In this document: positions 1-38,804 of the stretch, piece after piece | How positions within the stretch are numbered: the first letter of the stretch is position 1 | Layout: every line of letters begins with the position of its first letter | Source of the DNA: Hyphomicrobiales bacterium | Lineage (GTDB): Bacteria; Pseudomonadota; Alphaproteobacteria; Rhizobiales; HXMU1428-3 | DNA: 63,911 nt | Direction of reading: 5' to 3' | Assembly (NCBI GenBank): GCA_017640685.1 | Contig: JAEPQF010000002.1 | Coordinates: 1 to 63,911, forward strand | Notes under the pieces: generated by a model | Seen by the model: the letters and a program-made list of their open reading frames with translations, nothing else | Databases searched by the model: none | What the model was told of the DNA's origin: nothing | Made by a program: the position numbers and the translations under genes

Positions 1-162
1 GTTTTAGAATATGCAACAACAGCTGCGCTACAGAAGGATGCGCTGGATGCCCTTACATTTAAATGCAATGTGCTATGGTCTCAACTCGACGCACTTTATT
101 TAGCTTACTATTCTCCAGCACTCATTCCCCCAGGAGCATTTAGGGAAGAAGATGCAAATTAG
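1..162 (+). CDS. pqqC: Pyrroloquinoline-quinone synthase PqqC, 3' end (truncated by window)
   Basis: Frame 1 reads VLEYATTAALQKDALDALTFKCNVLWSQLDALYLAYYSPALIPPGAF..., the typical PqqC C-terminus (FKCxVLWxQLDAL); TAG at 160-162; directly upstream of pqqD/pqqE. Confidence 0.9.
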   Translation, partial: VLEYATTAALQKDALDALTFKCNVLWSQLDALYLAYYSPALIPPGAFREEDAN

Positions 163-209
163 CGCCATATGGCAGTGAGAACAAAACTCAAACAAAGCGA
201 AAAATAAAA

Positions 210-500
210 ATGACAAGAGAGCGCTTAATCGTTGAAACAAATACAACCCCGGCTCTGCCAAGGTTTGTAAAATTACGTCATGACAAGGGGCGCGACCGGT
301 GGATCATGTTAGCACCAGAGCGGATCTTAACACCAGACCCAATCGCTGTTGAAGTTTTGAACCTTTGTGATGGAGAAAAAACGGTAGGAGATATTTCTAA
401 TCACCTAGCAGAAATTTATAACGCACCTGCAGATGTGATTGAAAAAGACATCACAAACATGTTGCAGGACTTAGCGGATAAAGGATTTTTAACATCATGA
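210..500 (+). CDS. pqqD: PQQ biosynthesis peptide chaperone PqqD
   Basis: 96 aa, LAPER...LCDG..TV..I...LA..Y.A pattern; lies between pqqC and pqqE. Confidence 0.92.
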   Translation: MTRERLIVETNTTPALPRFVKLRHDKGRDRWIMLAPERILTPDPIAVEVLNLCDGEKTVGDISNHLAEIYNAPADVIEKDITNMLQDLADKGFLTS

Positions 501-1633
501 TTGAAGCTGGCGATAATAATAGTGCAGATCTTTGTGCCGTTGCCCCAATGGGACTTTTAGCGGAACTCACTCATCGCTGCCCACTTCAATGTCCTTATTG
601 CTCCAACCCAACTGAACTAGAGCGCGCAAGCGGTGAACTCTCAACAGAAGAGTGGGCTCGTGTATTCAAGGAAGCCGGAGAACTCGGCATCTTACAAACT
701 CACCTCTCAGGCGGGGAACCAACAGTTAGAAAAGATTTAGAAGAAATTCTAAAAGCTGCAGTAGACGCAGGTATTTATACAAACCTCATCACGGCAGGCG
801 TTCTCCTCTCTAAAGAAAGGTTAACTGGCCTGAAAGACCTTGGCCTCGATCACGTCCAACTCTCAGTTCAACATGTTGACGCTCAATTAGCAGATAAAAT
901 CGCTGGCTTTAAAGGAGGCTATTCAAAGAAAATTCAACTAGCAGAATGGGTAAAAGAGCTAGATCTACCTTTAACAGTGAACTCACCTATGCACCGGCAT
1001 AACGTCGAATACCTTGAAGAAATCATAGAGTTTGCCTTAAAATTAGGGGCAGAACGGCTAGAAGTTGCTCACATTCAATATTATGGTTGGGCCTTTGAAA
1101 ACCGCCACACCCTCATTCCAACAAAAGAGCAAGTTTATAGAAACGCAGACATCGTCGATGAAGCCAGAGAACGCCTAAAAGGTGTTATGTCTATCGACTT
1201 TGTGGTACCTGACTATTATGCAGTCCGCCCAAAACCATGCATGGGCGGCTGGGGAAGTTCCTTTATGACAATCTCTCCAACAGGTAAAGTTCTCCCTTGT
1301 CATGCGGCAGCTTCTATAAAAGGCTTAGAATTTGAAAATGTGAAAGATCGTCACCTACGAGACATCTGGTTGCATTCCTCTTCCTTTAATAAATATCGCG
1401 GCACAGATTATCTACCAGAGCCTTGCAAATCTTGTGAATTTAAAGAAGTTGATTTTGGCGGCTGCCGGTGCCAAGCCTTTATGTTTACTGGCGATGCAAC
1501 AAACACAGACCCAGCTTGCTCAAAATCATCATATCATAAAGAATTACTAGAAATAGCAGAACGAGAGTCAAAGCTCGCACCAAAAGAATTTCTCTATAGA
1601 AAATTTACAAAACAACACCAGCCCGCTGAATAA
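497..1633 (+). CDS. pqqE: PqqA peptide cyclase PqqE (radical SAM/SPASM)
   Basis: ELTHRCPLQCPYCSNP CxxxCxxC motif, SGGEP, KPCMGGWG, GGCRCQA; ATGA overlap with pqqD. Confidence 0.97.
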   Translation: MIEAGDNNSADLCAVAPMGLLAELTHRCPLQCPYCSNPTELERASGELSTEEWARVFKEAGELGILQTHLSGGEPTVRKDLEEILKAAVDAGIYTNLITAGVLLSKERLTGLKDLGLDHVQLSVQHVDAQLADKIAGFKGGYSKKIQLAEWVKELDLPLTVNSPMHRHNVEYLEEIIEFALKLGAERLEVAHIQYYGWAFENRHTLIPTKEQVYRNADIVDEARERLKGVMSIDFVVPDYYAVRPKPCMGGWGSSFMTISPTGKVLPCHAAASIKGLEFENVKDRHLRDIWLHSSSFNKYRGTDYLPEPCKSCEFKEVDFGGCRCQAFMFTGDATNTDPACSKSSYHKELLEIAERESKLAPKEFLYRKFTKQHQPAE

Positions 1634-1652
1634 AAAATCTTCCAAACCGATT

Positions 1653-2759
1653 TCAGCTTGTTGAAATATAATCTCGCTTATACCTCTGGCCGAGAGACGT
1701 AAGAATTTCATACCCTATAGTCCCAGCTCGATCAGCAATTTCGTCAATCAAAATTGTCTCGCCCATTACTTCCACTAGCGAACCAACATCAACTAAGTCT
1801 CTAGGTAAATCTGTTATATCGATCATAATAAGGTCCATAGTCACGCGGCCAACAATTGGCACCAAATGACCAGTAATAGCCATTTTCCCTTTACCACCTA
1901 ACGAGCGCAAATAACCGTCCGCATAACCAACCCCAATCGTTGCAATACGGCTTGGCCTTGAAGCTGTCCAGCAAGCACCATAACTCACACTATCACCAGT
2001 TTCAATTTCAGAGATTTGTAAAATCGGAGTCTCAACTGTCACGACAGGCAAACAAGGGTTTGATTGGTTCGAAAAAGGGTTACCACCATAAAGCCCAATA
2101 CCAACACGGCAAACATCAAAATGATACTCAGGCCCTAGCAGCGTTCCAGCAGAATTTGCCAGAGATAAAGACGCACCCATAAGCGCTGGCGATCGTTTTT
2201 TCATCAGCTCATTAAACAAATCAAGCTGATCTTTATTCTTTTTATTTCCAACCTCATCACCACAAGCCAAATGAGACATGATCAACTGAAGCGTTAAACC
2301 ATCAACTAATCTTTCATCAGCACACAATCGTAAAAACTCATCGGGTCTAAAGCCAAGTCGGTTCATACCCGTGTCAACCTGTAAGGCAACATCACCATAA
2401 CCACTTTGCTTTGCAAATTTTTGCCATCGTTCAAGCGAGGAAAAAGAATGTACAACTGGAATAAGACACTTTTCCTGAAACACCTCCTCTTCACCAGGAA
2501 GAGCTCCGTGAAATACATAAATTTTTGCTTGCGGTAAGAAGCCACGAAGATCACCTCCCTCAAAACCATGTGCTACAAAAAAAGTTTCACATCCAGCTTT
2601 TGAAAGAGCCATTGCAACAGGTTCACAGCCAAGTCCATAAGCATCCGCTTTAACAACCCCAGCAATTTCTGAAGATGCAGATTTTTGCGAGGCTTCAACA
2701 AAATACTTATAGTTTTCTTCAATCCGCTTTAGGTTAATCTTCAAAGTCGTGGCACTCAT
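1653..2759 (-). CDS. alr: Alanine racemase
   Basis: VVKADAYGLG (PLP lysine), DTGMNRLG, MSHLAC, GYADG, GRVTMD, TIGYEILT. ATG at 2759 preferred over the ORF-track start 2780. Confidence 0.95.
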   Translation of the reverse strand: MSATTLKINLKRIEENYKYFVEASQKSASSEIAGVVKADAYGLGCEPVAMALSKAGCETFFVAHGFEGGDLRGFLPQAKIYVFHGALPGEEEVFQEKCLIPVVHSFSSLERWQKFAKQSGYGDVALQVDTGMNRLGFRPDEFLRLCADERLVDGLTLQLIMSHLACGDEVGNKKNKDQLDLFNELMKKRSPALMGASLSLANSAGTLLGPEYHFDVCRVGIGLYGGNPFSNQSNPCLPVVTVETPILQISEIETGDSVSYGACWTASRPSRIATIGVGYADGYLRSLGGKGKMAITGHLVPIVGRVTMDLIMIDITDLPRDLVDVGSLVEVMGETILIDEIADRAGTIGYEILTSLGQRYKRDYISTS

Positions 2760-3232
2760 TAAAAACTCTCTTAAATCCAAAATTCAAAAATGATCGGAAC
2801 TATCCGTTTGATAGAACCCAAAGCAAAAAATTGAAACGATCAACCCTAGGGCAAATTCAAAAAGGCTAAAATTCAAAAAAATTTTCAAAAATTTCGAATT
2901 TGCCCAAACATTAATCACCTAAGTTACAGAAATTTCATACATTTTTTTCAATAATATCCACAGAGCCCCTTCAGCCCAACAAAAAATTATGATAGGATTA
3001 AAGCTAGTGAAGTAAAAAGCAGATTTTAACAAACATGATTGGATGGTGTTTCACTCAGAACTGACCACTTATACATCAGAGCTGATAAGTTGAAAAAACA
3101 GAAAAGCAAAATCTTTTTCGAGACCATAAAAGTTAAGAATACTTGTTTAAGATACTCTCTTTTAAGAGACTAAAGCCTTTTCAAAATTCAAAGCAATCTA
3201 AGTTTTAATTCGTTTTTTTCTACACGAGCAAA

Positions 3233-26736: not shown

Positions 26737-28977
26737 TTAAACAAAATCAACGTGCTTGTTAAAAGGCATTTCACGAACCCGCTTACCGGTTGCTGCAAAA
26801 ATAGCATTCCCTAAAGCAGGTGCTGCTGGTGGCACAGGCGGTTCACCAATGCCGCGAACCTTTTCCCCATTCTCTAAACCTTTTACAAAAATCTCAGGGC
26901 ATTGCGACATACGCATACCATCATGACTGTCATAATTTGATTGCTCCGCCATTCCATCAGAATATGTAATTTCACAATTCATCGCATGACCAAGACCAAA
27001 GATAACACCGCCTTGAACAAGATTTTCAAAATTCACCGGGTCAACAATCCGCCCAACATCGCAAGCAATCCAAACCTTTTCAATTTTAATCCCATCTGGC
27101 AATTTCGTCACCTCAACCACTTCAGCAACAGGCACCCCAAAACTTTCAACAAAAGCAACACCCCGTCCTTGGTTTTCACCAAGCTTAGTGCCCCAAGAAC
27201 ACATCTCAGCAACAGTTTCTAAAACAATCTGAGAAGGTCTATGCCCCATTAACCGAATGCGCTCAGCCATTGGGTCAGCACCAGCTTCATGAATGAGTTC
27301 ATCAAGAAAACTATCAAAAATAAACCCAGCACCTGCAGCACCTACAGAACGCCATGAAGAAACCGGCGCAAGCTCATCAACTCTGTATGCCCGCATTCGA
27401 TAATTTGGAAAGTCATAAGGATTATTCCACGCGCCCGCTGCAATTTGAGCATCAGGACCAGGGATGCTCAAATTAGCACGGCCCATTTGAGAATTAATGA
27501 CAGATGGCGCAGCAATCTCAAGATCAATCGCCTCAACCTTACCATCTTTCACAGCCCCCTTGCCGCGACCAATTGCAATATGACGAGGGAAATCATGAGC
27601 AAAATCTTCTTCTCGGCTATAAGTCAGTTTAATCGGCACCCCGCGCATTTGGTTCGCAATTTCGGCTGCTAATTTCAGATGCTCCATTTCTAACCGATGA
27701 CCAAAACTGCCACCCATATAGAGGTTATGAAAGGTAACTTGCTCAGCCTCATGCCCAGTAACTTTAGCAACAATCTGCTGAAGCATCCGCGGCATCTGAT
27801 GCCCACTCCAAATCTCAACCTGTTCAGCTGTCACCCGGATAAGCACATTCAAAGGCTCAAGCGGAGCATGAGCAACATAAGGTGAGCGATACTCACGAGA
27901 TACAACTTTCCCCACACTTAGTGCTTTTACAATATCTCCATCATTGCGCCACTCACTATCGAGTTTATCGTCAACAAATGAGTTAGAAATTTCAGTCCAA
28001 TGATCTTTCTGTTCAGCCGGATATGGCGCTGCCTCCCATTCAAAATCAATCTCTTCTACTGCTTGTATGGCATACCAAGTGTTGCTCGCAATCACAGCAA
28101 CACCATTCGTCACGGGCAAAATTTTCTTCACGCCAGTCATTTTTTGAGCTCTAGAAACATCATATTTTTTAAGGCCCGCCCCTTGCCGCGGATTGACCTT
28201 AACAGTTGCATAAACCATATCGTCCATATCCTGGTCGATGCCGTATTTTAAAGCACCTGTTGACTTTTCAACAATGTCCACCCGTTTCATTGGCTTGCCA
28301 ACCAATCGCCACTCACTAGGCGCGCGCAACTTGACATCCTGAACAGGGTCAATTTTTGCAGCATCTCCAGCAAGCTCAGTATATTTAACCCTTTTACCAC
28401 CTGGGAAAATAACAGCAGCCCCTTCAGTTTTTAACTGATCAATCGGTGTTTTAAATTTTTTACTCGCAGTTAATTTTAAAGTCTCTCTCGCCATAGCACC
28501 GGCAACGCGCAGTTTTTCATAACTATCTGGCGTAGATGTAGAACCACCAGTGCCTTGCATCCCCATTAGCTTCAACACACCGCCCATAACATCACGCATC
28601 GCATCAGCCGCAAAACTTTTATCTGTCGCCATAAACGGCACGCCCTCATCCGCCATGGCAGTATTCCAATAAGCGGCGCTTGGTTGACCAAAACTCGTTT
28701 CAAACTGGCCGAAGTCAACATCCAGCTCCTCAGCCAAAAGGGCCGCTTGCATAGAAGTAACACCCTGCCCCTTGTCACCATGCGGCGTAATCAAAGTTAT
28801 CTTTTCACTATCAATTAAAATCCACGGATTAAAAGTAGCTGCATTCTCAGCAAGTCCTTCTTCCAAGGGGTTATCATGTGGCGTTGCTAATTTATACAAA
28901 CCAAAAGCCACACCTCCAGCAAGAGCCGCTGAACCAACAAGGAAAGTCCGCCGTGTAATTGTTCCCAATTTTCCCAT
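26737..28977 (-). CDS. Second IorB-like molybdopterin-binding subunit (Tat signal)
   Basis: TRRTFLVG twin-Arg, DKGQG, TGGSTS, HAPLEP, GGSFGHR, WRSVG, GIGEP; ATG 28977. Confidence 0.9.
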   Translation of the reverse strand: MGKLGTITRRTFLVGSAALAGGVAFGLYKLATPHDNPLEEGLAENAATFNPWILIDSEKITLITPHGDKGQGVTSMQAALLAEELDVDFGQFETSFGQPSAAYWNTAMADEGVPFMATDKSFAADAMRDVMGGVLKLMGMQGTGGSTSTPDSYEKLRVAGAMARETLKLTASKKFKTPIDQLKTEGAAVIFPGGKRVKYTELAGDAAKIDPVQDVKLRAPSEWRLVGKPMKRVDIVEKSTGALKYGIDQDMDDMVYATVKVNPRQGAGLKKYDVSRAQKMTGVKKILPVTNGVAVIASNTWYAIQAVEEIDFEWEAAPYPAEQKDHWTEISNSFVDDKLDSEWRNDGDIVKALSVGKVVSREYRSPYVAHAPLEPLNVLIRVTAEQVEIWSGHQMPRMLQQIVAKVTGHEAEQVTFHNLYMGGSFGHRLEMEHLKLAAEIANQMRGVPIKLTYSREEDFAHDFPRHIAIGRGKGAVKDGKVEAIDLEIAAPSVINSQMGRANLSIPGPDAQIAAGAWNNPYDFPNYRMRAYRVDELAPVSSWRSVGAAGAGFIFDSFLDELIHEAGADPMAERIRLMGHRPSQIVLETVAEMCSWGTKLGENQGRGVAFVESFGVPVAEVVEVTKLPDGIKIEKVWIACDVGRIVDPVNFENLVQGGVIFGLGHAMNCEITYSDGMAEQSNYDSHDGMRMSQCPEIFVKGLENGEKVRGIGEPPVPPAAPALGNAIFAATGKRVREMPFNKHVDFV

Positions 28978-28978
28978 C

Positions 28979-29440
28979 TTACTCTCCCCCACTAAGCTGC
29001 TTTGAGGCAGTTTTTATAGCCGCCTTAATGCGAGGGTATGTCCCACAACGACAAAGGTTACCAGACATCGCTTCATCAATATCATCATCGCTAGGTGAAG
29101 GGTTTTCATCTAATAGTGAAGCCGCCTGCATGATTTGACCAGATTGACAATATCCGCACTGAGCAACTTGATGTTCTATCCAAGCCTCTTGCACGACATG
29201 TAAAGAAGTCGGCGTCCCCAACCCTTCAATAGTAATTACCTCACCCTCCAAATCACCAATAGCTAATTGGCATGATCGAACGGCAACTCCATCAACATGG
29301 ACCGTACAGGCCCCGCACTGGGCAATCCCACAACCATATTTAGGGCCGGTGATTTTTAACTCATCTCGCAAGACCCAAAGAAGCGGCATGTCTGGAGAAA
29401 CATCTACTTCAGCTTCTTTTCCGTTCACTATAATTTTCAC
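28979..29440 (-). CDS. Second IorA-like [2Fe-2S] subunit
   Basis: [34 protein letters not shown]; GTG at 29440 preceded by GAGGAG. Confidence 0.9.
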
Positions 29441-29519
29441 AGCAGAACTCCTCATATTTTGAAAGCAGCAACTAAACTCAGTAAGAGAAAACTCCAAAAC
29501 CAAGAGATATTTTTTAAAC

Positions 29520-29556
29520 TACATATTGACAAAATGAATAAATTTGTCAATATGTA
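29520..29556. promoter_or_regulatory. Putative TetR operator in divergent promoter region
   Basis: Perfect 14-bp inverted repeat TACATATTGACAAA-N9-TTTGTCAATATGTA; each arm contains a TTGACA -35 hexamer, one on each strand. Confidence 0.75.
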
Positions 29557-29559
29557 AAA

Positions 29560-30120
29560 ATGAATCAAAAAGAAGAACAAATCTTAAGCGCGGCAACAGG
29601 GCTTTTCCTACGCTATGGTTTTCGCCGCACAACAATGGGGGAAGTCGCCACAGAGGCTAAAATCTCGAGGCAAACCCTTTATGAAGTCTATGCCAATAAA
29701 GAAAAGTTACTCGGAGGGGTTATTGAGTTATATTATGAAAAGCTATTCGAGACTTTAAAAATTGAATGGGAACAAAGCGAAGACCTCTCAGCCAAGCTTG
29801 ATGTGTTTTTTCAAAATGCAGTGATTGAAGCCTATCGCCTCATTCAACAATGGCCTGATGCTGAAGACATAATTTCAGAAGAGAATGTACATGCTCAAAA
29901 TGCCTATGAAGCGGGCCTTGATCAACTGACAAACTTAATGGAAAAAATCTTAACCCCTTACAAAAAACAGGTGAAACAGTCAGGGCAAACAATTCCCCAA
30001 TATGCGAATTTTATTACACTCACCTCAATGAAGTTGAAAAAAAATCTGAACAGCGAAGAAGAGTTAGTGCTTTTATTAAAGTCACTAAAAATCTCTATAT
30101 TAGCAGTCTTGGAAAAATAA
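29560..30120 (+). CDS. TetR/AcrR family transcriptional regulator
   Basis: ILSAA..LF..YGF..TTMGEVA.EA.ISRQTLY..Y.NKE.L HTH. Confidence 0.92.
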   Translation: MNQKEEQILSAATGLFLRYGFRRTTMGEVATEAKISRQTLYEVYANKEKLLGGVIELYYEKLFETLKIEWEQSEDLSAKLDVFFQNAVIEAYRLIQQWPDAEDIISEENVHAQNAYEAGLDQLTNLMEKILTPYKKQVKQSGQTIPQYANFITLTSMKLKKNLNSEEELVLLLKSLKISILAVLEK

Positions 30121-30257: not shown

Positions 30258-30274
30258 TGCCCATTTTCAAGGCA
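30258..30274 (+). promoter_or_regulatory. Possible NtrC-type enhancer site
   Basis: TGCCC-N7-AGGCA, resembling TGCAC-N7-GTGCA, ~90-105 bp upstream of the sigma54 promoter. Confidence 0.35.
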
Positions 30275-30362: not shown

Positions 30363-30378
30363 TGGCACACCCTTTGCT
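30363..30378 (+). promoter_or_regulatory. Sigma54 (RpoN) -24/-12 promoter
   Basis: TGGCAC-ACCCT-TTGCT, exact TGGCAC-N5-TTGCW consensus, 134 bp upstream of the next ATG. Confidence 0.82.
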
Positions 30379-30511
30379 TTTTAAGTTGTAAAATTAAAAA
30401 TGCATCAAACATGCATCAAAGAATTTCAACCATTCTTTTTTAGCTGCTTGATGCAACCAATGAATAAGCAACTTCCAAAGCTGCAAAGGAAGTCTTATCA
30501 GAGGGGGTCAT

Positions 30512-32530
30512 ATGTTGCCGACAAATCAGCTAAACACTGATTGTACAAACACGTCTAGTGATCAGAAAAGTCCGGGTTGTGATGAAAATCCGGTCATTGT
30601 TATCGGCGGTGGTCCTGCTGGCATAAGAGCAGCTGAATGTTTATCCGCTAAAAATATTCCGGTAATCATATTCAATGCCGAACGGTGGCAGCCTTATAAC
30701 AGAGTGAAGCTAACCCCACTGCTTTCCGGCGATGTACAAGTTGGCCAAGTTTATCTTGAGCCAAACTTACCCAAAGATGCAAAAGTAAAGCAATATACTT
30801 CACATCCAATCGTTAGTATTGACACTGAAAACAAAGAGGTCATCGGACAATTTGAACGCCGCTTTCCCTACAGCAAGCTCATAATTGCAACCGGATCTCG
30901 CGCCCACATTCCAGCAATTCCTGGCATTGAACTGGATGATGTTTTTAAATTTCGTAATTTTGATGATGTTGAAAAACTCGTTGCAAGAAGCATCTCAGCA
31001 AGGCGATGTGTCGTCATAGGCGGCGGCCTTCTTGGCCTAGAAGCCGCACGCGGTATGGCCAACCGTAAAATTGAAACCATCGTTGTTGAACACGAAACAA
31101 GATTAATGGCCCGTCAATTAGACGACGGTGCCGGTGCTCTCCTGGCCTCTCAAATTGAAGCTCTAGGGCTCACAGTCAAAACAGGTCTATCAGTTAAAAA
31201 AATCAACGGAACAGACAGAGTAGAAAGCATTACACTTTCAAATGGCGAAGAAATTGAGTGTGATACATTGATTGTTTGCACAGGCATCAGAGCCAATATG
31301 GAAATTGCGCGAGACGCTGGCCTTGCCGTTGGCCGCGCAATCTCAGTTGATCAATATCTTCAAACATCTGATCCAGACATTTATGCAATTGGTGAATGCG
31401 CTGAATATAAAGGCCACGTTTATGGACTTGTCGGCCCAGGGCTAGAGCAAGCCGCGATCACTGCTAATAATATCAGTGGAGAAACAGAGAGTTACTCAGG
31501 GTCTCTGCCAACAACAAAATTAAAAGTAGTCGGCTCAGATGTTTTTTCTATGGGCGATGTTGAGCAATTAGCAGAGCGAATTGATATAGACACCATCACT
31601 TATGAGAATAAAGACAAATCCATTTATCGCCGTTTAATTCTTCAAAAAAATCGCCTTGTTGGTGCAATGGCCATTGGCGAGTGGCCTGAAATCAATGTCC
31701 TTCAAAATGCAATTGTTCAACGTAAATTCATCTGGCCATGGCAAAAACTGAGCTTCCAAAAATCTGGCTTTCTCTTTTCACAAAAAAAACCTCAAAGCGT
31801 AACAGAGTGGCCAGCCGCTGCCACAGTTTGCAATTGCACCGGCGTCACGAGAGGGCAAATTGGTGAGGCAATGTCACAGGGCTGTGTCACCTTTGAAAGC
31901 TTAAAGAAAGAAACAAGTTGCTCAACCGTTTGCGGTAGTTGCAAACCATTGATCCATGAACTACTAGCTGGCAAACCAAAATATGAACCTATAGAATGGT
32001 TAAAACCCGTGCTTTTAGGTTCCACACTTGCTCTAATCGCAGCACTCATAACACTCCTTGCTCCAGGCCTTCCCTCAAGAGATAGCATCATACCCGACTT
32101 CACTATCGATATGATCTGGACAGACAGCTATTACAAACAAGTCAGCGGCTTTACTCTCCTAGGTTTGTCGGTGATTGCTGCCATACTTTCTTTGCGAAAA
32201 AACATTAAGTTTCTCTCCTTCGGAGCCTATTCAGGTTGGCGCGCCTTTCACATCCTCATCGGACTGTTAGCTGCAATCATTTTATTTCTCCATACAGGCT
32301 TCCACTTAGGAGACAATTTAAATTTCTGGTTGATGATCAGCTTTCTTGCCCTCGGGCTAACAGGAGCGCTGACAGGCCTCTTAAAAGCTGGAGAACATCG
32401 CCTCCTTAAAAAAGGAATGAAACTAAATAATGAGGCTCCCGCTCGAATAACCTTCTGGCTTCACATCATCACCTTTTGGCCACTACCCGTATTGTTGGCT
32501 CTTCATATTCTAACTGTATATTTTTATTAA
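30512..32530 (+). CDS. NirB-like FAD/NAD(P)H oxidoreductase with BFD-like [2Fe-2S] domain fused to a C-terminal multi-TM domain
   Basis: GGGPAG, PYNR..L, ATGS, IGGGLLGLEAA, YAIGEC, TKLKV; CNC...CGSC cluster; ~5 TM helices with His (AFHIL, FLHTG, WLHII, ALHIL); no siroheme/4Fe-4S domain. Confidence 0.82.
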   Translation: MLPTNQLNTDCTNTSSDQKSPGCDENPVIVIGGGPAGIRAAECLSAKNIPVIIFNAERWQPYNRVKLTPLLSGDVQVGQVYLEPNLPKDAKVKQYTSHPIVSIDTENKEVIGQFERRFPYSKLIIATGSRAHIPAIPGIELDDVFKFRNFDDVEKLVARSISARRCVVIGGGLLGLEAARGMANRKIETIVVEHETRLMARQLDDGAGALLASQIEALGLTVKTGLSVKKINGTDRVESITLSNGEEIECDTLIVCTGIRANMEIARDAGLAVGRAISVDQYLQTSDPDIYAIGECAEYKGHVYGLVGPGLEQAAITANNISGETESYSGSLPTTKLKVVGSDVFSMGDVEQLAERIDIDTITYENKDKSIYRRLILQKNRLVGAMAIGEWPEINVLQNAIVQRKFIWPWQKLSFQKSGFLFSQKKPQSVTEWPAAATVCNCTGVTRGQIGEAMSQGCVTFESLKKETSCSTVCGSCKPLIHELLAGKPKYEPIEWLKPVLLGSTLALIAALITLLAPGLPSRDSIIPDFTIDMIWTDSYYKQVSGFTLLGLSVIAAILSLRKNIKFLSFGAYSGWRAFHILIGLLAAIILFLHTGFHLGDNLNFWLMISFLALGLTGALTGLLKAGEHRLLKKGMKLNNEAPARITFWLHIITFWPLPVLLALHILTVYFY

Positions 32531-32544
32531 GGGAGCCAAAGAGG

Positions 32545-33984
32545 ATGTCTAAAAATATTCTATTCTGGTTAATTTGGCTCATAGGTACAGTTTCTGTCGG
32601 TGGATATCTTGCAGCTGCAATGTTTTACGGCGGAGATCGCTCAAACCTTCTCATAGGTAAAACAACAAGTGGCCATCATCAAATTGAACTCTCTTGCAAC
32701 ACCTGCCATGGCAACGGCTTTACCGATGCAGACACCATCCAAAAAGCGTGCCTAAGTTGTCATGAAAACGAACTCAAAGTTGCCAAAGACAGTCACCCAA
32801 TAAAAAAATTCAGAGACCCAAGAAACGCAGCCCGTCTCGAACAACTCAACGCACAAAAATGCGTGACCTGTCACACAGAACATAAACCAGAACTCGTTAG
32901 TTCAATGGGCATGGGCGTTACCCTCCCAAAAGATTTTTGCTTCAAATGCCACGCAGACGTCGGTAAAGACCGTCCTCACACCCATAAAGATTTAAATTTC
33001 GAAGGGTGCGCAAGTTCTGGTTGCCATAACTATCATGACAATCGTGCCCTTTATGAACGGTTCTTGGAGAAGCACGCCAAAGAACCTGAAATGAAATTAA
33101 CTCAGCTTATAAATAACTTAAATTATGAAAAGCTTAGCGAAGAATATGGTGGGCTAAAGCGCAGCGATCCTTTAAAACCAACAGAGGCAAACGCTCCCAA
33201 AGAGCACATCAATCAAAAATTATTAGACACTTGGCATCAAGATGCTCACGCCCAAAACGGTGTTAATTGCTCAGCGTGCCATCAACCCAATAAAGACAAA
33301 CAAGCTTGGATTAAAAAGCCAGGGATTGCTGTTTGTGCAAGTTGCCATAAAGAAGAAAACAAAAGCTTCCTTGCTGGCAAACATGGCATGCGTTTAGCGC
33401 CAGATATGCTTCAATCAAAAGCAGACCCATTTAACCTGCCATTTAAAATATTTAAAGAAAACAAACTCTCCCCTATGCGGCCAAAATTGGCACGTTTGCC
33501 CATGAAGCAATCAGCACATGGAACAGAACTAACCTGTAATACATGCCATTCAGTTGGGAAAGAAAACCACAAATTCAACGTTCAAAAAGCAAAAGTTCAA
33601 GCTTGTCTTTCTTGCCATGACGACGAACACAGCAAAGCTTATCTAACCTCACCTCATCACGAGCTATGGCAGAAAGAGATAAAAGGTGAATTACCAAAAG
33701 GCTCTGGCGTAACCTGCGCCACCTGCCACATGCCGCGCATAGCTGTTGAAGATGAGTATGAGAATGAAGTTTTCATCATCACTCATAATCAAAATGACAA
33801 TTTAAAACCAAACGAAAAGATGATCCGTTCCGTTTGTTCAGCTTGTCATGGTCTGCGCTTCAGCATCGATTCTCTCGCAGATCCAAATTTAATTAAGAAG
33901 AATTTCCATGGTCGATCAACCTTCAAAATAGAAAGCATTGATTGGGTTCTGAAACGATCATCGAAACCGGAGGAAACCAAATGA
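32545..33984 (+). CDS. Membrane-anchored multiheme cytochrome c (10 CxxCH + 1 CX4CH)
   Basis: CNTCH, CLSCH, CVTCH, CFKCH, CASSGCH, CSACH, CASCH, CNTCH, CLSCH, CATCH, CSACH; N-terminal TM; ATG 32545 preferred. Confidence 0.88.
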   Translation: MSKNILFWLIWLIGTVSVGGYLAAAMFYGGDRSNLLIGKTTSGHHQIELSCNTCHGNGFTDADTIQKACLSCHENELKVAKDSHPIKKFRDPRNAARLEQLNAQKCVTCHTEHKPELVSSMGMGVTLPKDFCFKCHADVGKDRPHTHKDLNFEGCASSGCHNYHDNRALYERFLEKHAKEPEMKLTQLINNLNYEKLSEEYGGLKRSDPLKPTEANAPKEHINQKLLDTWHQDAHAQNGVNCSACHQPNKDKQAWIKKPGIAVCASCHKEENKSFLAGKHGMRLAPDMLQSKADPFNLPFKIFKENKLSPMRPKLARLPMKQSAHGTELTCNTCHSVGKENHKFNVQKAKVQACLSCHDDEHSKAYLTSPHHELWQKEIKGELPKGSGVTCATCHMPRIAVEDEYENEVFIITHNQNDNLKPNEKMIRSVCSACHGLRFSIDSLADPNLIKKNFHGRSTFKIESIDWVLKRSSKPEETK

Positions 33985-34049
33985 TTTCCCCCTCCCCTAA
34001 GACGACTAAAAATACAACTGCTGTTTTAAAAACATTAAAGGAGATTTAC

Positions 34050-34637
34050 ATGTTTAACTTTAAAACATCACTGAAGAAGAGCACTCTATCAATCACTGTT
34101 GGCAGCCTCATATTTGGCATGTCAATGTCAGCACCAGCAACAGCGAAAACTTTTGAGCCGCAACAAGTCACAGACATGCTGCACCTGGTCCTTGAGTCAG
34201 ACAGAACCATCTATACTAAAAAAGTGGTAAAGCGCCTCGCTAACAAACACAAAGTTATCAAAGCCACCGAATCTTTTGAGGATGATAAATCATTACCTCT
34301 ACCGGCCCAGATGTTTCGTTTCGGCGCCGAAGCCGTGGCAGATAAAACGGATAAATTCTCTTATTCACTTCTCTCACTATGGCCTATTAACAAACAAAAC
34401 AAACCAACAACGGAACTAGAGAAAAAAGGTCTTGAATATATCAATGTCAATAAAGGCAAAAATTATTACGGTGAAGAAACACTGGGCGGTAAAAAATATT
34501 TCACAGCAGTCTACCCAGATGTGGCCGTTGCAACACCTTGCGTTGGTTGCCACAACAATCATAAAGACACGCCTAAAAAAGACTTCAAGATGGGTGATGT
34601 CATGGGCGGCGTTGTCATCCGCATTCCACTTCAATAA
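34050..34637 (+). CDS. Exported DUF3365/Tll0287-like monoheme c protein
   Basis: Signal peptide (..APATA), PLPAQM, PIN..N.P, C-terminal CVGCH, GDVMGG; ATG 34050 after AAGGAG. Confidence 0.75.
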   Translation: MFNFKTSLKKSTLSITVGSLIFGMSMSAPATAKTFEPQQVTDMLHLVLESDRTIYTKKVVKRLANKHKVIKATESFEDDKSLPLPAQMFRFGAEAVADKTDKFSYSLLSLWPINKQNKPTTELEKKGLEYINVNKGKNYYGEETLGGKKYFTAVYPDVAVATPCVGCHNNHKDTPKKDFKMGDVMGGVVIRIPLQ

Positions 34638-34655
34638 TTGAACAGAAACTTTCGC

Positions 34656-34696
34656 GTCTCTCTTAACCCAACACATGGGGATGGGTTGAGAGAGAC
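34656..34696 (+). other. Intercistronic stem-loop (possible mRNA stability element)
   Basis: GTCTCTCTTAACCCA/TGGGTTGAGAGAGAC 15-bp stem (one G-U), no U-tract, just upstream of the globin RBS. Confidence 0.55.
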
Positions 34697-34725
34697 ACAT
34701 CAACACTAAACAAAGGAACAAAACA

Positions 34726-35178
34726 ATGACACCAGAACAAGTAGAGCTGGTTCAATCTTCATTTAAAAAAGTAGAACCCATCGCTTCAACTGCAGGTGAT
34801 TTATTTTATGGCCGCCTATTCGAAATCGCCCCAGAAGTTAGGCCCATGTTTGCAGATAATATTGAAGAGCAACGCGACAAGCTCATGTCAATGCTGGCAA
34901 CTGCAGTGACTAACCTTCATCAAATTGAACAAATCATCGAGCCGGTAAAAACTCTAGGCGCAAAGCATGTCGATTATGGGGTGAAAGACGAACACTACGA
35001 TAAAGTCGGTGAGGCATTAATCTGGACACTTCAAGAAGGCTTAAAAGATGACTTCACACCAGAAGTAAAAGATGCATGGGTTGCAACTTACGGTACATTA
35101 GCAACTGTTATGAAAGATGCAGCTGCAGAAGCTTCAAAATCTAAAAAAGGGTTTTTAGGAAGATTATTCGGCACATAA
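34726..35178 (+). CDS. Single-domain globin (flavohemoglobin/Vgb-like)
   Basis: LVQSSF, FYGRLFEIAPEVRPMF, Q(E7), LGAKHVDYGV...HY..VGEAL, AW...Y. Confidence 0.92.
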   Translation: MTPEQVELVQSSFKKVEPIASTAGDLFYGRLFEIAPEVRPMFADNIEEQRDKLMSMLATAVTNLHQIEQIIEPVKTLGAKHVDYGVKDEHYDKVGEALIWTLQEGLKDDFTPEVKDAWVATYGTLATVMKDAAAEASKSKKGFLGRLFGT

Positions 35179-35230
35179 TTTTTATCAATTAGCATCCCCC
35201 ATGCTATATAGTAGCGCGTATAAAAACTAC

Positions 35231-35259
35231 AGACCTCATAATTTATGAGGTCTTTTTTT
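35231..35259 (+). terminator. Intrinsic terminator after the globin gene
   Basis: AGACCTCATA/TATGAGGTCT stem followed by T-tract. Confidence 0.8.
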
Positions 35260-35376
35260 CACCCTAATAATACTAACAATAAACAATCCCTCGCAAAAAT
35301 TTGATTGTAGCCAATCAAAATCATCCATTAGCATGAAAAGAAAAATCAAAACAAATTTCTGATGCGTGAGGGTGCA

Positions 35377-37901: not shown

Positions 37902-38804
37902 ATGGACAAACTATCAAAAATCTTAAAAGCACAAATCACACTTTTTGTGATTTGCTTTGCAACATCTCTCACAAACATCACACCAGCCCAAGCTGCTTGC
38001 GGCGGTTATAATCAAAAAGCCTGCCCCATTTTTAAAAAGGGTAGTGTGTGCCGAAGCTGGCTCACAAATGTAAGAGGCATCTGCCGCCCTTGTGGGGGCC
38101 AAAATCAAAGAGCATGCCCCATCACAAAAAAAGGCAAAGCTTGTAAAAGAGGCCTGAAATGGAAACTCGGCAAATGCATCAAGCCCAAACAATCTGTAAA
38201 AAAGAAATTACTAAGAGACGCAAAAATTCGTGCCCAGCGCTTCAAGCCAATGATCAACACAATTGCAAATACACTTAGAAGAGTGGGTAATAAACAAATG
38301 ATCAGACGATTAAACGCGGCTTTAAAATCAAAAAATCCAGCCAGAATTAGAAACGTCATTCAAGACATGCAAACAAGAGCCGTTCGAGTAGCTTTACAAA
38401 AAGCCGGCTTTAGAACCCTAGCTGTTGGCATCCAATCTTCAGTAGCTGTAGCTGGTGGTTACGGCCGCGAAACAGGCCTTGCGCTTCCTGTAAGCGGTAG
38501 AGGACATGCACCTCTTTATGTTTCAAAAACATATTTTGGCGGTGTCATCCTTGGTGTCGGTAATGATCTTGTAATGTCAGCCTTTACTGACAACCCCAAT
38601 AATGTTGGAGGCGCCCTATACGCTGCGATCGGAAACTTTGATGTTGGCTCTGGTGTAGGTGTTGTTCTCTGGTATGACAAAAGAACACTCCTAATCAAAG
38701 GTGTCTCTGTTGGCATCGGTATCGGAAGTGTTGGTGCTGGCGGCGCGATTGGCCATGGCACAACTTACCTCTGCCCATCAAGAGCATGCAATAAAGTCTT
38801 TTAA
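37902..38804 (+). CDS. Hypothetical secreted protein with two Cys-rich repeats and Gly-rich C-terminal domain
   Basis: Signal peptide (..PAQA), CGGYNQKACP.. and CGGQNQRACP.. repeats, own terminator. Confidence 0.7.
   Translation: MDKLSKILKAQITLFVICFATSLTNITPAQAACGGYNQKACPIFKKGSVCRSWLTNVRGICRPCGGQNQRACPITKKGKACKRGLKWKLGKCIKPKQSVKKKLLRDAKIRAQRFKPMINTIANTLRRVGNKQMIRRLNAALKSKNPARIRNVIQDMQTRAVRVALQKAGFRTLAVGIQSSVAVAGGYGRETGLALPVSGRGHAPLYVSKTYFGGVILGVGNDLVMSAFTDNPNNVGGALYAAIGNFDVGSGVGVVLWYDKRTLLIKGVSVGIGIGSVGAGGAIGHGTTYLCPSRACNKVF

Follow-up and report, generated by a model that had tools for sequence, protein, structure and literature searches.

Organization and conservation of the operon

Four co-oriented genes form an operon within the window, the whole analysed stretch of 63,911 nucleotides from a Hyphomicrobiales genome (contig JAEPQF010000002.1, Table 1). 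The perfect sigma54 promoter, the four genes, and the single terminator described in an earlier sequence-only reading were all found again as an exact site, plus-strand ORFs, and a hairpin followed by a T run. The domain calls of that reading also agree with the present ones (Pyr_redox_2/Rubredoxin_C/Fer2_BFD in gene 1, Tll0287-like/DUF3365 in gene 3, and Globin in gene 4). Its count of 11 haems in gene 2 is retained but can be refined, as the 11 motifs comprise ten CXXCH and one CX4CH.

Table 1. Positions of the operon features within the window.
Feature	Position	Strand	Description
TGC-N11-GCA inverted repeat	30258..30274	+	Probable NtrC-type enhancer; 105 nt 5′ of the sigma54 site
Putative sigma54 (-24/-12) promoter	30363..30378	+	Exact consensus match
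Gene 1 (P0001)	30512..32530	+	672 aa; NirB-type flavoprotein with membrane domain
Gene 2 (P0002)	32545..33984	+	479 aa; 11-haem cytochrome c with an N-terminal anchor
Gene 3 (P0003)	34050..34637	+	195 aa; stand-alone sCache_heme (DUF3365/Tll0287) monohaem protein
Gene 4 (P0004)	34726..35178	+	150 aa; single-domain globin, Vgb/flavohaemoglobin type
Intrinsic terminator-like element	35231..35260	+	10-bp hairpin and T run at 35231-35253

The four-gene arrangement is a real, conserved bacterial operon. The earlier reading had named conservation of the cassette as a check on its proposal, and genes 1-2-3 are collinear in 79 of 80 related loci, the 80th being interrupted by a contig end. A globin gene follows in 72/80 (Vgb type in 57, truncated globin in 15, never both); eight loci have no globin, one of which ends at a contig edge. 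Of 300 genomes sampled without bias, two are carriers, and each of these possesses genes 1-3 and a globin. The cassette is spread over Alpha-, Beta-, and Gammaproteobacteria, Myxococcota, and Planctomycetota. A search of 72,556 plasmid records gave only one weak, unrelated match. No description of the cassette was found in the literature searched, nor in the available parts of papers on Ferrigenium, Sideroxydans, and Methylomonas NtrC. In two marine metatranscriptome runs, genes 2-4 are partly covered by contigs, and that of one relative spans gene 2 into the globin; at shares of 0.06-0.07 they may derive from DNA and are not evidence of expression.

Promoter conservation and nitrogen context

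The element TGGCAC-N5-TTGCT is the sole zero-mismatch sigma54 match within the window. The genome of 3.5 Mb, which encodes both rpoN and ntrC, contains six such exact sites in total. With up to one mismatch allowed, chance alone predicts 3.1 matches in the window, which holds two; a single site is thus little proof on its own. Assignment as a sigma54 promoter is supported by conservation across loci: of the 66 related loci, 39 have a site with at most one mismatch 5′ of gene 1 (compared to 0.45% of shuffles), or 32/59 once seven matches inside an upstream porin gene are removed. The TGC-N11-GCA repeat, which we take to be NtrC-type from the general consensus, also occurs 5′ of nirB and nrtA in the same genome and is found upstream of none of the five other exact sigma54 sites. 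It is present upstream in 19 of 42 related loci, compared to frequencies of 2.5% in shuffles and 4.0% in genome windows. NasT-like leaders occur at cassette loci. The dual hairpin leader was not found in this genome; a search of the genome for an ANTAR protein returned no match, with the control search likewise blank.

The nas genes are close by in 35/80 loci, and the available flanks of the other 45 contain none. Full NirB is encoded by 42 of 50 cassette hosts, compared to 131 of 300 background genomes. With another nitrite-reductase-like gene in seven further hosts (broken in two of them), 49/50 own a sirohaem-type gene. In the remaining host, G102, none was found, and its genome is probably incomplete. 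The source genome has separate NirB, NirD, and NasA. The cassette is not required for nitrate use, since NirB is present in five of six same-genus genomes that lack it. Genes resembling nirK were detected in 8/60 hosts (three over the cut-off) and genes resembling nirS in 9/60, giving either in 16/60 as raw counts from many incomplete genomes.

The cassette is thus very probably tied to nitrate assimilation, and the low number of hosts with nirK- or nirS-like genes points to this link rather than to denitrification. The tie to nitrogen control expected by the sequence-only reading is borne out by the NtrC-like sites, the NasT-like leaders, the neighboring nas genes, and the conserved sigma54 sites. 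A function of the cassette as the nitrite reductase of the cell is weakened, as nearly all hosts already own a full NirB or sirohaem-type gene. For the same reason, the cassette was rejected as a general replacement of the assimilatory nitrite reductase.

Gene 1: a NirB-type flavoprotein fused to a membrane domain

The profile search found Pyr_redox_2, Rubredoxin_C, and Fer2_BFD domains in gene 1. Its best family is NirB (TIGR02374, 403 bits against a cut-off of 578), where residues 29-488 cover only positions 2-468 of the 794-position profile. The protein has a single BFD [2Fe-2S] domain with C440, C442, C474, and C477 as ligands, and it lacks the sirohaem domain. The operon is therefore distinct from NirBD, as had been claimed. 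It also differs from NorVW and Hcp/Hcr: the NorW model scores 172 bits against a cut-off of 392, and no flavorubredoxin or hybrid-cluster partner occurs among the four genes or the recurring neighbors scanned.

The C terminus contains five hydrophobic segments. By hydropathy, H580, H594, H651, and H665 lie in membrane helices 3 and 5, and these four histidines and the four [2Fe-2S] cysteines are invariant wherever aligned. The membrane domain is therefore predicted to bind two b-type haems. Four conserved histidines in the third and fifth helices define ferric reductase domains in the available part of PMC3591440, and gene 1 has all four. The spacing is similar, at 14/14 in gene 1 and 14/13 in the ferric reductase domains described there. 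Ferric_reduct (PF01794) matches 5 of 75 gene 1 members, all below the cut-off (E 0.008 or worse), while cytochrome b561 matches 7/75 and DUF4405 23/75. The domain has no match among PDB sequences, and an Atlas search with it gave only matches below 0.9.

The arrangement resembles that of NOX/DUOX, FRE, SpNOX, and MsrQ/MsrP, in which an NAD(P)H-linked flavin feeds a membrane domain with two histidine pairs in helices 3 and 5. MsrQ hands its electrons to a periplasmic enzyme (PMC12525009, available in part). Unlike in the ferric reductase enzymes, the flavoprotein of gene 1 takes on the NirB (Pyr_redox) fold, forms the N-terminal part, and includes a BFD [2Fe-2S] domain, the PF01794 cut-off is not reached, and the partner is an 11-haem cytochrome.

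An NADPH oxidase-like activity could be derived from this similarity. Electrons would then reach periplasmic oxygen for O2 scavenging, NADH burn-off, or the formation of NO-destroying superoxide. The four-histidine membrane domain would suit this function, globins bind O2 as well, and sCache_heme proteins readily yield superoxide with O2 (PMC12889525, available in part). However, the NOX-specific histidine four residues past the second histidine of TM3 (the His-119 equivalent, His598 here) is present in only 12/80, and the flavin module is an N-terminal Pyr_redox_2 instead of C-terminal FAD/NADPH domains. A NOX also needs no multihaem wire, and the regulatory sites indicate nitrogen. This function is improbable.

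Gene 2: an 11-haem cytochrome on an HAO scaffold

Gene 2 has one hydrophobic segment, which is N-terminal. Haems 6-11 correspond to haems 2, 3, 5, 6, 7, and 8 of the hydroxylamine oxidoreductase (HAO) family, flanking motifs included, while haems 1-5 form a separate module with no match to HAO (score 33). The structure model is weak (mean pLDDT 65.5). Its top seven fold matches are all HAO-family octahaems, with Foldseek E-values of 1.6e-3 or higher and a VIA Z of 8.5 (rmsd 3.6-3.8 Å over about 190 residues), where a Z near 8 is borderline for the tool. A profile alignment to one HAO-family protein scored 104, compared to no more than 55 for 25 shuffles that kept the motifs; PF13447 gave no match to gene 2, and solved-structure sequences gave only scattered haem-motif matches. 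With modest model confidence, an HAO-type fold and haem arrangement can be assigned to the C-terminal half of gene 2 only. The fold and the six haem positions are shared with HAO, hydrazine dehydrogenase, Kustc0458, and the 4qo5 octahaem. In contrast to these octahaems, gene 2 adds the five-haem N-terminal module and a membrane anchor.

The long C-terminal helical region of HAO carries the tyrosine cross-link in oxidative members, and the tail of gene 2 past its last haem is shorter (36-71 aa, compared to 147 in HAO). The segment between haems 7 and 8 has no cysteine in 81/81 copies, so the five-coordinate haem 4 is missing, which is the catalytic haem of HAOs (PMC8042395, available in part). 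As its HAO-type scaffold lacks the catalytic haem, gene 2 probably does not encode the catalyst, which speaks against the earlier proposal that the multihaem protein itself reduces nitrogen compounds. The number of invariant extra histidines, 11, equals that of the haems; gene 2 may have an open catalytic site. The motif of a lysine-ligated catalytic haem, CXXCK, occurs in 0 of 176 near-full-length homologs, and NrfA models score far under their cut-off, which upholds the stated distinction from NrfAH. Relatives of gene 2 are sometimes labeled “NrfA” or “ammonia-forming nitrite reductase” in databases, and single odd fusions to MFS, HTH, SecA, and BFD were seen.

As oxidases exist among HAO scaffolds and haem wires are not bound to one direction, electrons might also flow inward, from an oxidized periplasmic substrate to NAD+ or the globin. 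Neither NO nor hydroxylamine is, however, a strong enough donor for NAD+ reduction. The tyrosine cross-linked haem 4 that oxidative HAOs require according to the available part of PMC8042395 is also absent here, and inward flow is very unlikely.

Gene 3 and the globin

Gene 3 is a Tll0287-like/DUF3365 protein (E 1e-21; PF11845, 78 bits against a cut-off of 24). It matches the fold of 5b82 (Z 11.9, rmsd 3.3 Å, 141 residues) and belongs to sCache_heme, a Cache fold with an inserted CXXCH helix. The protein is likely exported and lacks both a membrane helix and an output domain. Of the cassette genes it is conserved best, ranking above gene 2 in 80/80 loci (median 62% versus 47%). No match was found among solved-structure sequences. 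The fold and CXXCH motif are shared with Tll0287, GSU0935, and GSU0582. In contrast to the Tll0287 type, the stand-alone gene 3 lacks the distal cysteine (third Cys absent in 78/78), has a fixed multihaem-cytochrome partner, and is unusually conserved. Met88 is invariant in 81/81 cassette copies and is a candidate distal ligand from a low-probability alignment (16%); in unlinked relatives, of which some are named Nitrospina, this position is mostly Phe. Most long gene 3 forms inspected resemble tandem duplications (4/5; 120 among 133 listed). At 80 metagenome loci, many on short contigs, gene 3 relatives had neither gene 1 or 2 nearby nor a steady neighbor.

Members of sCache_heme that lack the cysteine or have a labile methionine bind NO (PMC12889525, in its available part; PMC8396549). 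The stand-alone protein in the former binds NO weakly, even after Cys-to-Ala exchange, so the absence of the cysteine alone does not identify an NO binder. NO is a tentative candidate for the substrate of gene 3, at slightly below even chances.

The conduit might merely keep the haem of gene 3 reduced, with gene 3 buffering or sensing NO in the periplasm but not truly turning it over. When compared with six other sCache_heme proteins, gene 3 matches two sensor domains of membrane receptors best (probability 98%), and such domains bind NO tightly (PMC12889525, available part). Against this stand the absence of a membrane helix and output domain, the expense of an 11-haem wire for sensing, and the neighborhood, in which nasST is the only regular sensor gene. 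A buffer or sensor is rather improbable.

Alternatively, the haem of gene 3 could take over the position of the missing haem 4. Genes 2 and 3 would then form a split HAO-type reductase that is fed by the same conduit and makes ammonium for assimilation from nitrite, hydroxylamine, or NO by multi-electron reduction. Gene 2 offers the HAO scaffold, and its His362 (invariant in 81/81) aligns with the histidine just past HAO haem 6, which has an active-site role in HAO. Control by nitrogen shortage would fit the retention of nitrogen. HAOs without the cross-link are able to reduce nitrite, NO, and hydroxylamine (PMC8042395), and Nitrospira provides a precedent for a periplasmic assimilatory nitrite reductase (PMC6606698), each as given in the available part of the source. 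On the other hand, nearly all hosts already own NirB or another sirohaem-type gene, CXXCK is absent from the homologs, and the available part of PMC12889525 reports no multi-electron catalysis by any sCache_heme protein. A split reductase is unlikely, though less so than an oxidase or a sensor.

Gene 4 is assigned to the single-domain globins of the Vgb/flavohaemoglobin type by its predicted fold and key residues. Y28, F42, Q49, and L53 are invariant in 58/58 and H81 is present in 57/58; TyrB10, PheCD1, GlnE7, and HisF8 are presumably among these positions. Of the loci with a truncated globin, 14/15 have a reductase of their own. In Bradyrhizobium, the assimilatory nitrate reductase produces NO, against which a co-encoded globin gives protection (PMC4724949, available in part). 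As described there, narK-bjgb-flp-nasC combines a single-domain globin with a flavoprotein under NasST control and clears the NO from nitrate assimilation. This system is cytoplasmic, and the membrane conduit and periplasmic cytochromes of the cassette have no counterpart in it.

Proposed electron flow

The architecture of a transmembrane conduit is probable. Nitrogen shortage would switch the operon on through the sigma54 and NtrC-like sites, and in many hosts nitrate would act through NasT. FAD would be reduced by NAD(P)H and pass electrons to the [2Fe-2S] cluster, as in NirB. From there, putative b-haems at the inner (His580/His651) and outer face (His594/His665) would carry them across the membrane without quinone. 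The 11-haem protein, having lost haem 4, would serve as wire and electron store, and the reactive haem would be supplied in trans by gene 3. The globin would act as an NO dioxygenase and probably be re-reduced by gene 1. The full preferred reading, in which NO arises during growth on nitrate, gene 3 reduces periplasmic NO at the end of this chain, and the globin converts cytoplasmic NO to nitrate, is favored only tentatively.

Relation to known systems and significance

The N-terminal module of gene 1 is shared with NirBD, and haem motifs of gene 2 are shared with NrfA and ONR. Unlike NirBD, NrfAH, and the Nitrospira ONR with Rieske/cytochrome b (available part of PMC6606698), the cassette has no sirohaem domain, CXXCK, or NrfH/Rieske subunit, and its donor would be NAD(P)H instead of quinol. 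The undecahaem UetJ of Tenderiales is set apart by gene context alone in the available part of its description.

The cassette can be tested now, as cultured hosts (Alcanivorax, Hahella, and Neptuniibacter) are among the carriers. Periplasmic nitrogen-oxide reductases usually obtain their electrons from quinol or cytochrome c. If the proposed conduit is true, a direct feed from NAD(P)H would provide a much stronger periplasmic reductant that is independent of respiration. A split HAO enzyme, if true, would give bacteria a new route to retain reactive nitrogen and be the first example of catalysis by a Cache domain. Gene 2 represents a haem-pruned branch in HAO evolution, and “NrfA”-type names on its relatives may inflate gene counts for nitrate ammonification. 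The cassette further suggests a function for the stand-alone DUF3365 subfamily.

Organization and spread of the cassette

The four genes encode a NirB-like flavoprotein with a membrane domain (gene 1), an 11-haem cytochrome (gene 2), an sCache_heme protein (gene 3) and a globin (gene 4). The sequence-only reading had proposed a perfect sigma54 promoter, four co-oriented genes and a terminator; the promoter match and the four genes were found together with a terminator-like hairpin, and its domain calls agree with our domain searches. Taken alone, the promoter match is weak as a prediction, because the window holds two matches with at most one mismatch, compared with 3.1 expected by chance. It is one of six exact sigma54 sites in the whole genome, which encodes rpoN, ntrC and a CcmF-type haem lyase. 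The aldehyde-oxidoreductase-like genes just upstream are divergent from a TetR regulator and are absent among the cassette's recurring neighbors that were scanned.

Coordinates of the operon features and of additional loci
Feature	Sequence	Position	Strand	Remark
sigma54 site	window	30363-30378		exact consensus match
Genes 1-4	window	30512-35178	+	672, 479, 195 and 150 aa
Terminator-like hairpin	window	35231-35253		
Aldehyde-oxidoreductase-like gene pair	window	26737-30120	-	molybdenum type, read by eye
ORF	window	37902-38804		300 aa, likely signal peptide, short Cys-rich repeats, no Pfam match
Likely uptake hydrogenase genes	contig C81, window's genome	685-3722		small and large subunits (by eye), preceded by an exact sigma54 site
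Divergent haem-copper oxidase subunit I	L138 (contig C102, window's genome)	28-3034		479 aa; accompanied by a short COX2-like subunit and an SCO-like gene
Tandem cassette	locus L080	4430-13782		two complete gene 1-2-3 copies, truncated globin between, then nrtABC
Split gene 2	genome G007, contig C10	9482-11034		several frames, assembly errors or decay; 70%-complete genome

Among 7,998 candidates scored, the relatives of gene 2 number at least 3,835 when clustered at 90%. For the comparison of loci, one genome per species was scanned, at least 583 relatives were confirmed and the best 80 of them were used, so that the set leans towards close relatives. Hyphomicrobiales genomes are the best named relatives among the matches listed. 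The cassette is conserved in these neighborhoods: 79 of the 80 loci keep the gene order 1-2-3, and the remaining one is interrupted by a contig end. A Vgb-type globin is present in 57 loci, a truncated globin in 15, both in none and neither in eight, and 14 of the 15 truncated-globin loci carry their own ferredoxin-type reductase. The distribution is patchy (7/13 same-genus genomes, 0/47 from other families of the order), and both cassettes found among the 300 genomes of a phylum sample consist of genes 1-3 and a truncated globin. A single 831-aa protein (P0209) fuses an MFS transporter to a gene 2 relative; it is the only such member and may be an artefact.

Membrane flavoprotein and 11-haem cytochrome

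Residues 29-488 of gene 1 match the flavin, NAD(P)H and first [2Fe-2S] modules of NirB and are followed by five hydrophobic segments, of which loops 2-3 and 4-5 are predicted to lie inside from Lys/Arg counts. His580/594 and His651/665 in helices 3 and 5 are invariant wherever aligned (79-80 of the best 80 loci). Such a pattern is described for the two stacked haems of ferric reductase domains (PMC3591440), a resemblance that may not reflect homology, and in gene 1 conservation does not extend to the NOX-specific His. The logic of the cassette is similar to that of NOX/FRE and of MsrPQ. Gene 1 would bind these cofactors and, in a complex with its partners, would send electrons outward past the quinone pool; the same chain run inward is a reading to which we give very little credence.

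Gene 2 contains 11 haem motifs, a number shared by 164 of 176 near-full-length homologs, and CXXCK occurs in none of the 176. Its AlphaFold model is modest and poor in the region of haems 1-5. The seven best fold matches are octahaem proteins of the hydroxylamine oxidoreductase (HAO) family, which cover residues 207-457 (Z 8.5, rmsd 3.6-3.8 Å). As an independent check, a profile of residues 215-479 was aligned to one HAO-family protein (PF13447, E 9e-25), in which gene 2 haems 6-11 pair with HAO-family haems 2, 3, 5, 6, 7, and 8 along with their flanking motifs, and haem 4 has no partner. This alignment scored 104, whereas 25 shuffles with the haem motifs left in place reached 22-55; for the N-terminal half the score was 33. 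No Cys is found at the place of haem 4, described as the catalytic haem of HAOs (PMC8042395), in any of 81 gene 2 homologs, and another 11 His vary little or not at all. Because the HAO scaffold lacks its catalytic haem, gene 2 looks like a wire derived from an enzyme, in agreement with the pruning and grafting described in PMC9250108. An open site on gene 2 is possible. A split HAO-type enzyme that reduces its substrate to ammonium is a rival reading that we hold to be unlikely.

sCache_heme protein and globin

The model of gene 3 is confident (pLDDT 93.8), and its best match is Tll0287, whose DUF3365 family has been reclassified as sCache_heme (PMC12889525). As described there, a stand-alone His/Cys member resembles a redox protein, and its NO binding is weak and stays so when the Cys is removed, whereas a Cys-free receptor member binds NO tightly. 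Gene 3 is likewise a stand-alone protein but lacks the Cys in 78 of 78 copies. Receptor sensor domains are its closest kin among six other sCache_heme proteins compared, and in light of this kinship a role of the system as NO buffer or sensor was considered, which seems rather improbable. Met88 adjoins the position at which the Cys aligns, in a weak alignment, and is present in 81 of 81 cassette copies; relatives unlinked to the cassette mostly carry Phe instead. A labile Met and NO binding are reported for Geobacter members (PMC8396549). In all 80 best loci conservation is higher for gene 3 than for gene 2, which would fit a part in contact with the substrate. Separately, tandem two-domain and single-domain relatives (P0296-P0408, L139-L218; ~40-50% identical), some named Nitrospina, carry Phe at the position of Met88 and are not linked to the cassette.

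Gene 4 is a single-domain globin with the bacterial haemoglobins 3wfw, 3s1i, and Vgb as nearest solved structures and with invariant distal Tyr and Gln. Its replacement by a truncated globin with a reductase suggests a need for cytoplasmic NO or O2 chemistry and a possible role of gene 1 in re-reducing the Vgb-type globin. An oxidase was weighed as well and is held to be about as improbable as the buffer or sensor, if not slightly more so.

Regulation and nitrogen context

Of the best 80 loci, 66 have enough DNA ahead of gene 1, and 39 of these show a sigma54 site there with at most one mismatch, versus 0.45% of shuffles; the count is 32 of 59 once seven porin-internal matches are dropped. These seven words (L059, L064, L068, L071, L082, L087, L088; Alcanivorax-type loci) lie inside the upstream porin gene, ~460 nt from gene 1, and are probably coding sequence; an internal promoter is possible. 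A TGC-N11-GCA repeat, which we take to be NtrC-like, occurs 40-200 nt upstream of the sigma54 site in 19 of 42 loci (background: 2.5% of single-base shuffles, 4.0% of genome windows). In the window's genome the repeat is found ahead of the operon, of nirB and of nrtA, and it is missing upstream of all five remaining exact sigma54 sites. The nirB and nrtA upstream regions (contigs C32 and C24) each have two such repeats and sigma54-like sites whose -12 element is non-standard.

Words that we presume to be NasT-like occur in 22 of 50 leaders versus a 5% background. Paired hairpins with AxxG loops, the leader feature described for NasT-type control (PMC10783516), were found in 33 of 67 upstream regions versus 15%, and none in the window's own leader. 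A search of its genome for ANTAR proteins or NasT was blank, as was the control search, and nitrate sensing here may therefore rely on another regulator.

Nitrate-assimilation genes flank 35 of the 80 loci. Among 50 host genomes of these loci, picked for long flanks, 42 encode full NirB versus 131 of the 300 in the phylum sample, but since kin are not independent, such counts do not amount to statistical tests. Seven of the remaining eight carry a sirohaem-type gene, putatively NirA-like or a broken NirB from its domain and position. NO-forming respiratory nitrite reductases were found in 16 of 60 hosts. The L138 oxidase, which is closely matched in 9 of 66 genomes, may belong to one of the non-canonical NO reductase families.

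Each part of the cassette has known kin. A full-text literature search, covering mostly open papers without their supplements, found no published description of the cassette; gene 3 relatives could appear in the PMC12889525 datasets. In Bradyrhizobium, a globin of this type is described as guarding against NO from assimilatory nitrate reductase (PMC4724949). Our preferred reading, held tentatively and at a little under even odds, is that the cassette removes NO on both sides of the membrane during nitrate assimilation.
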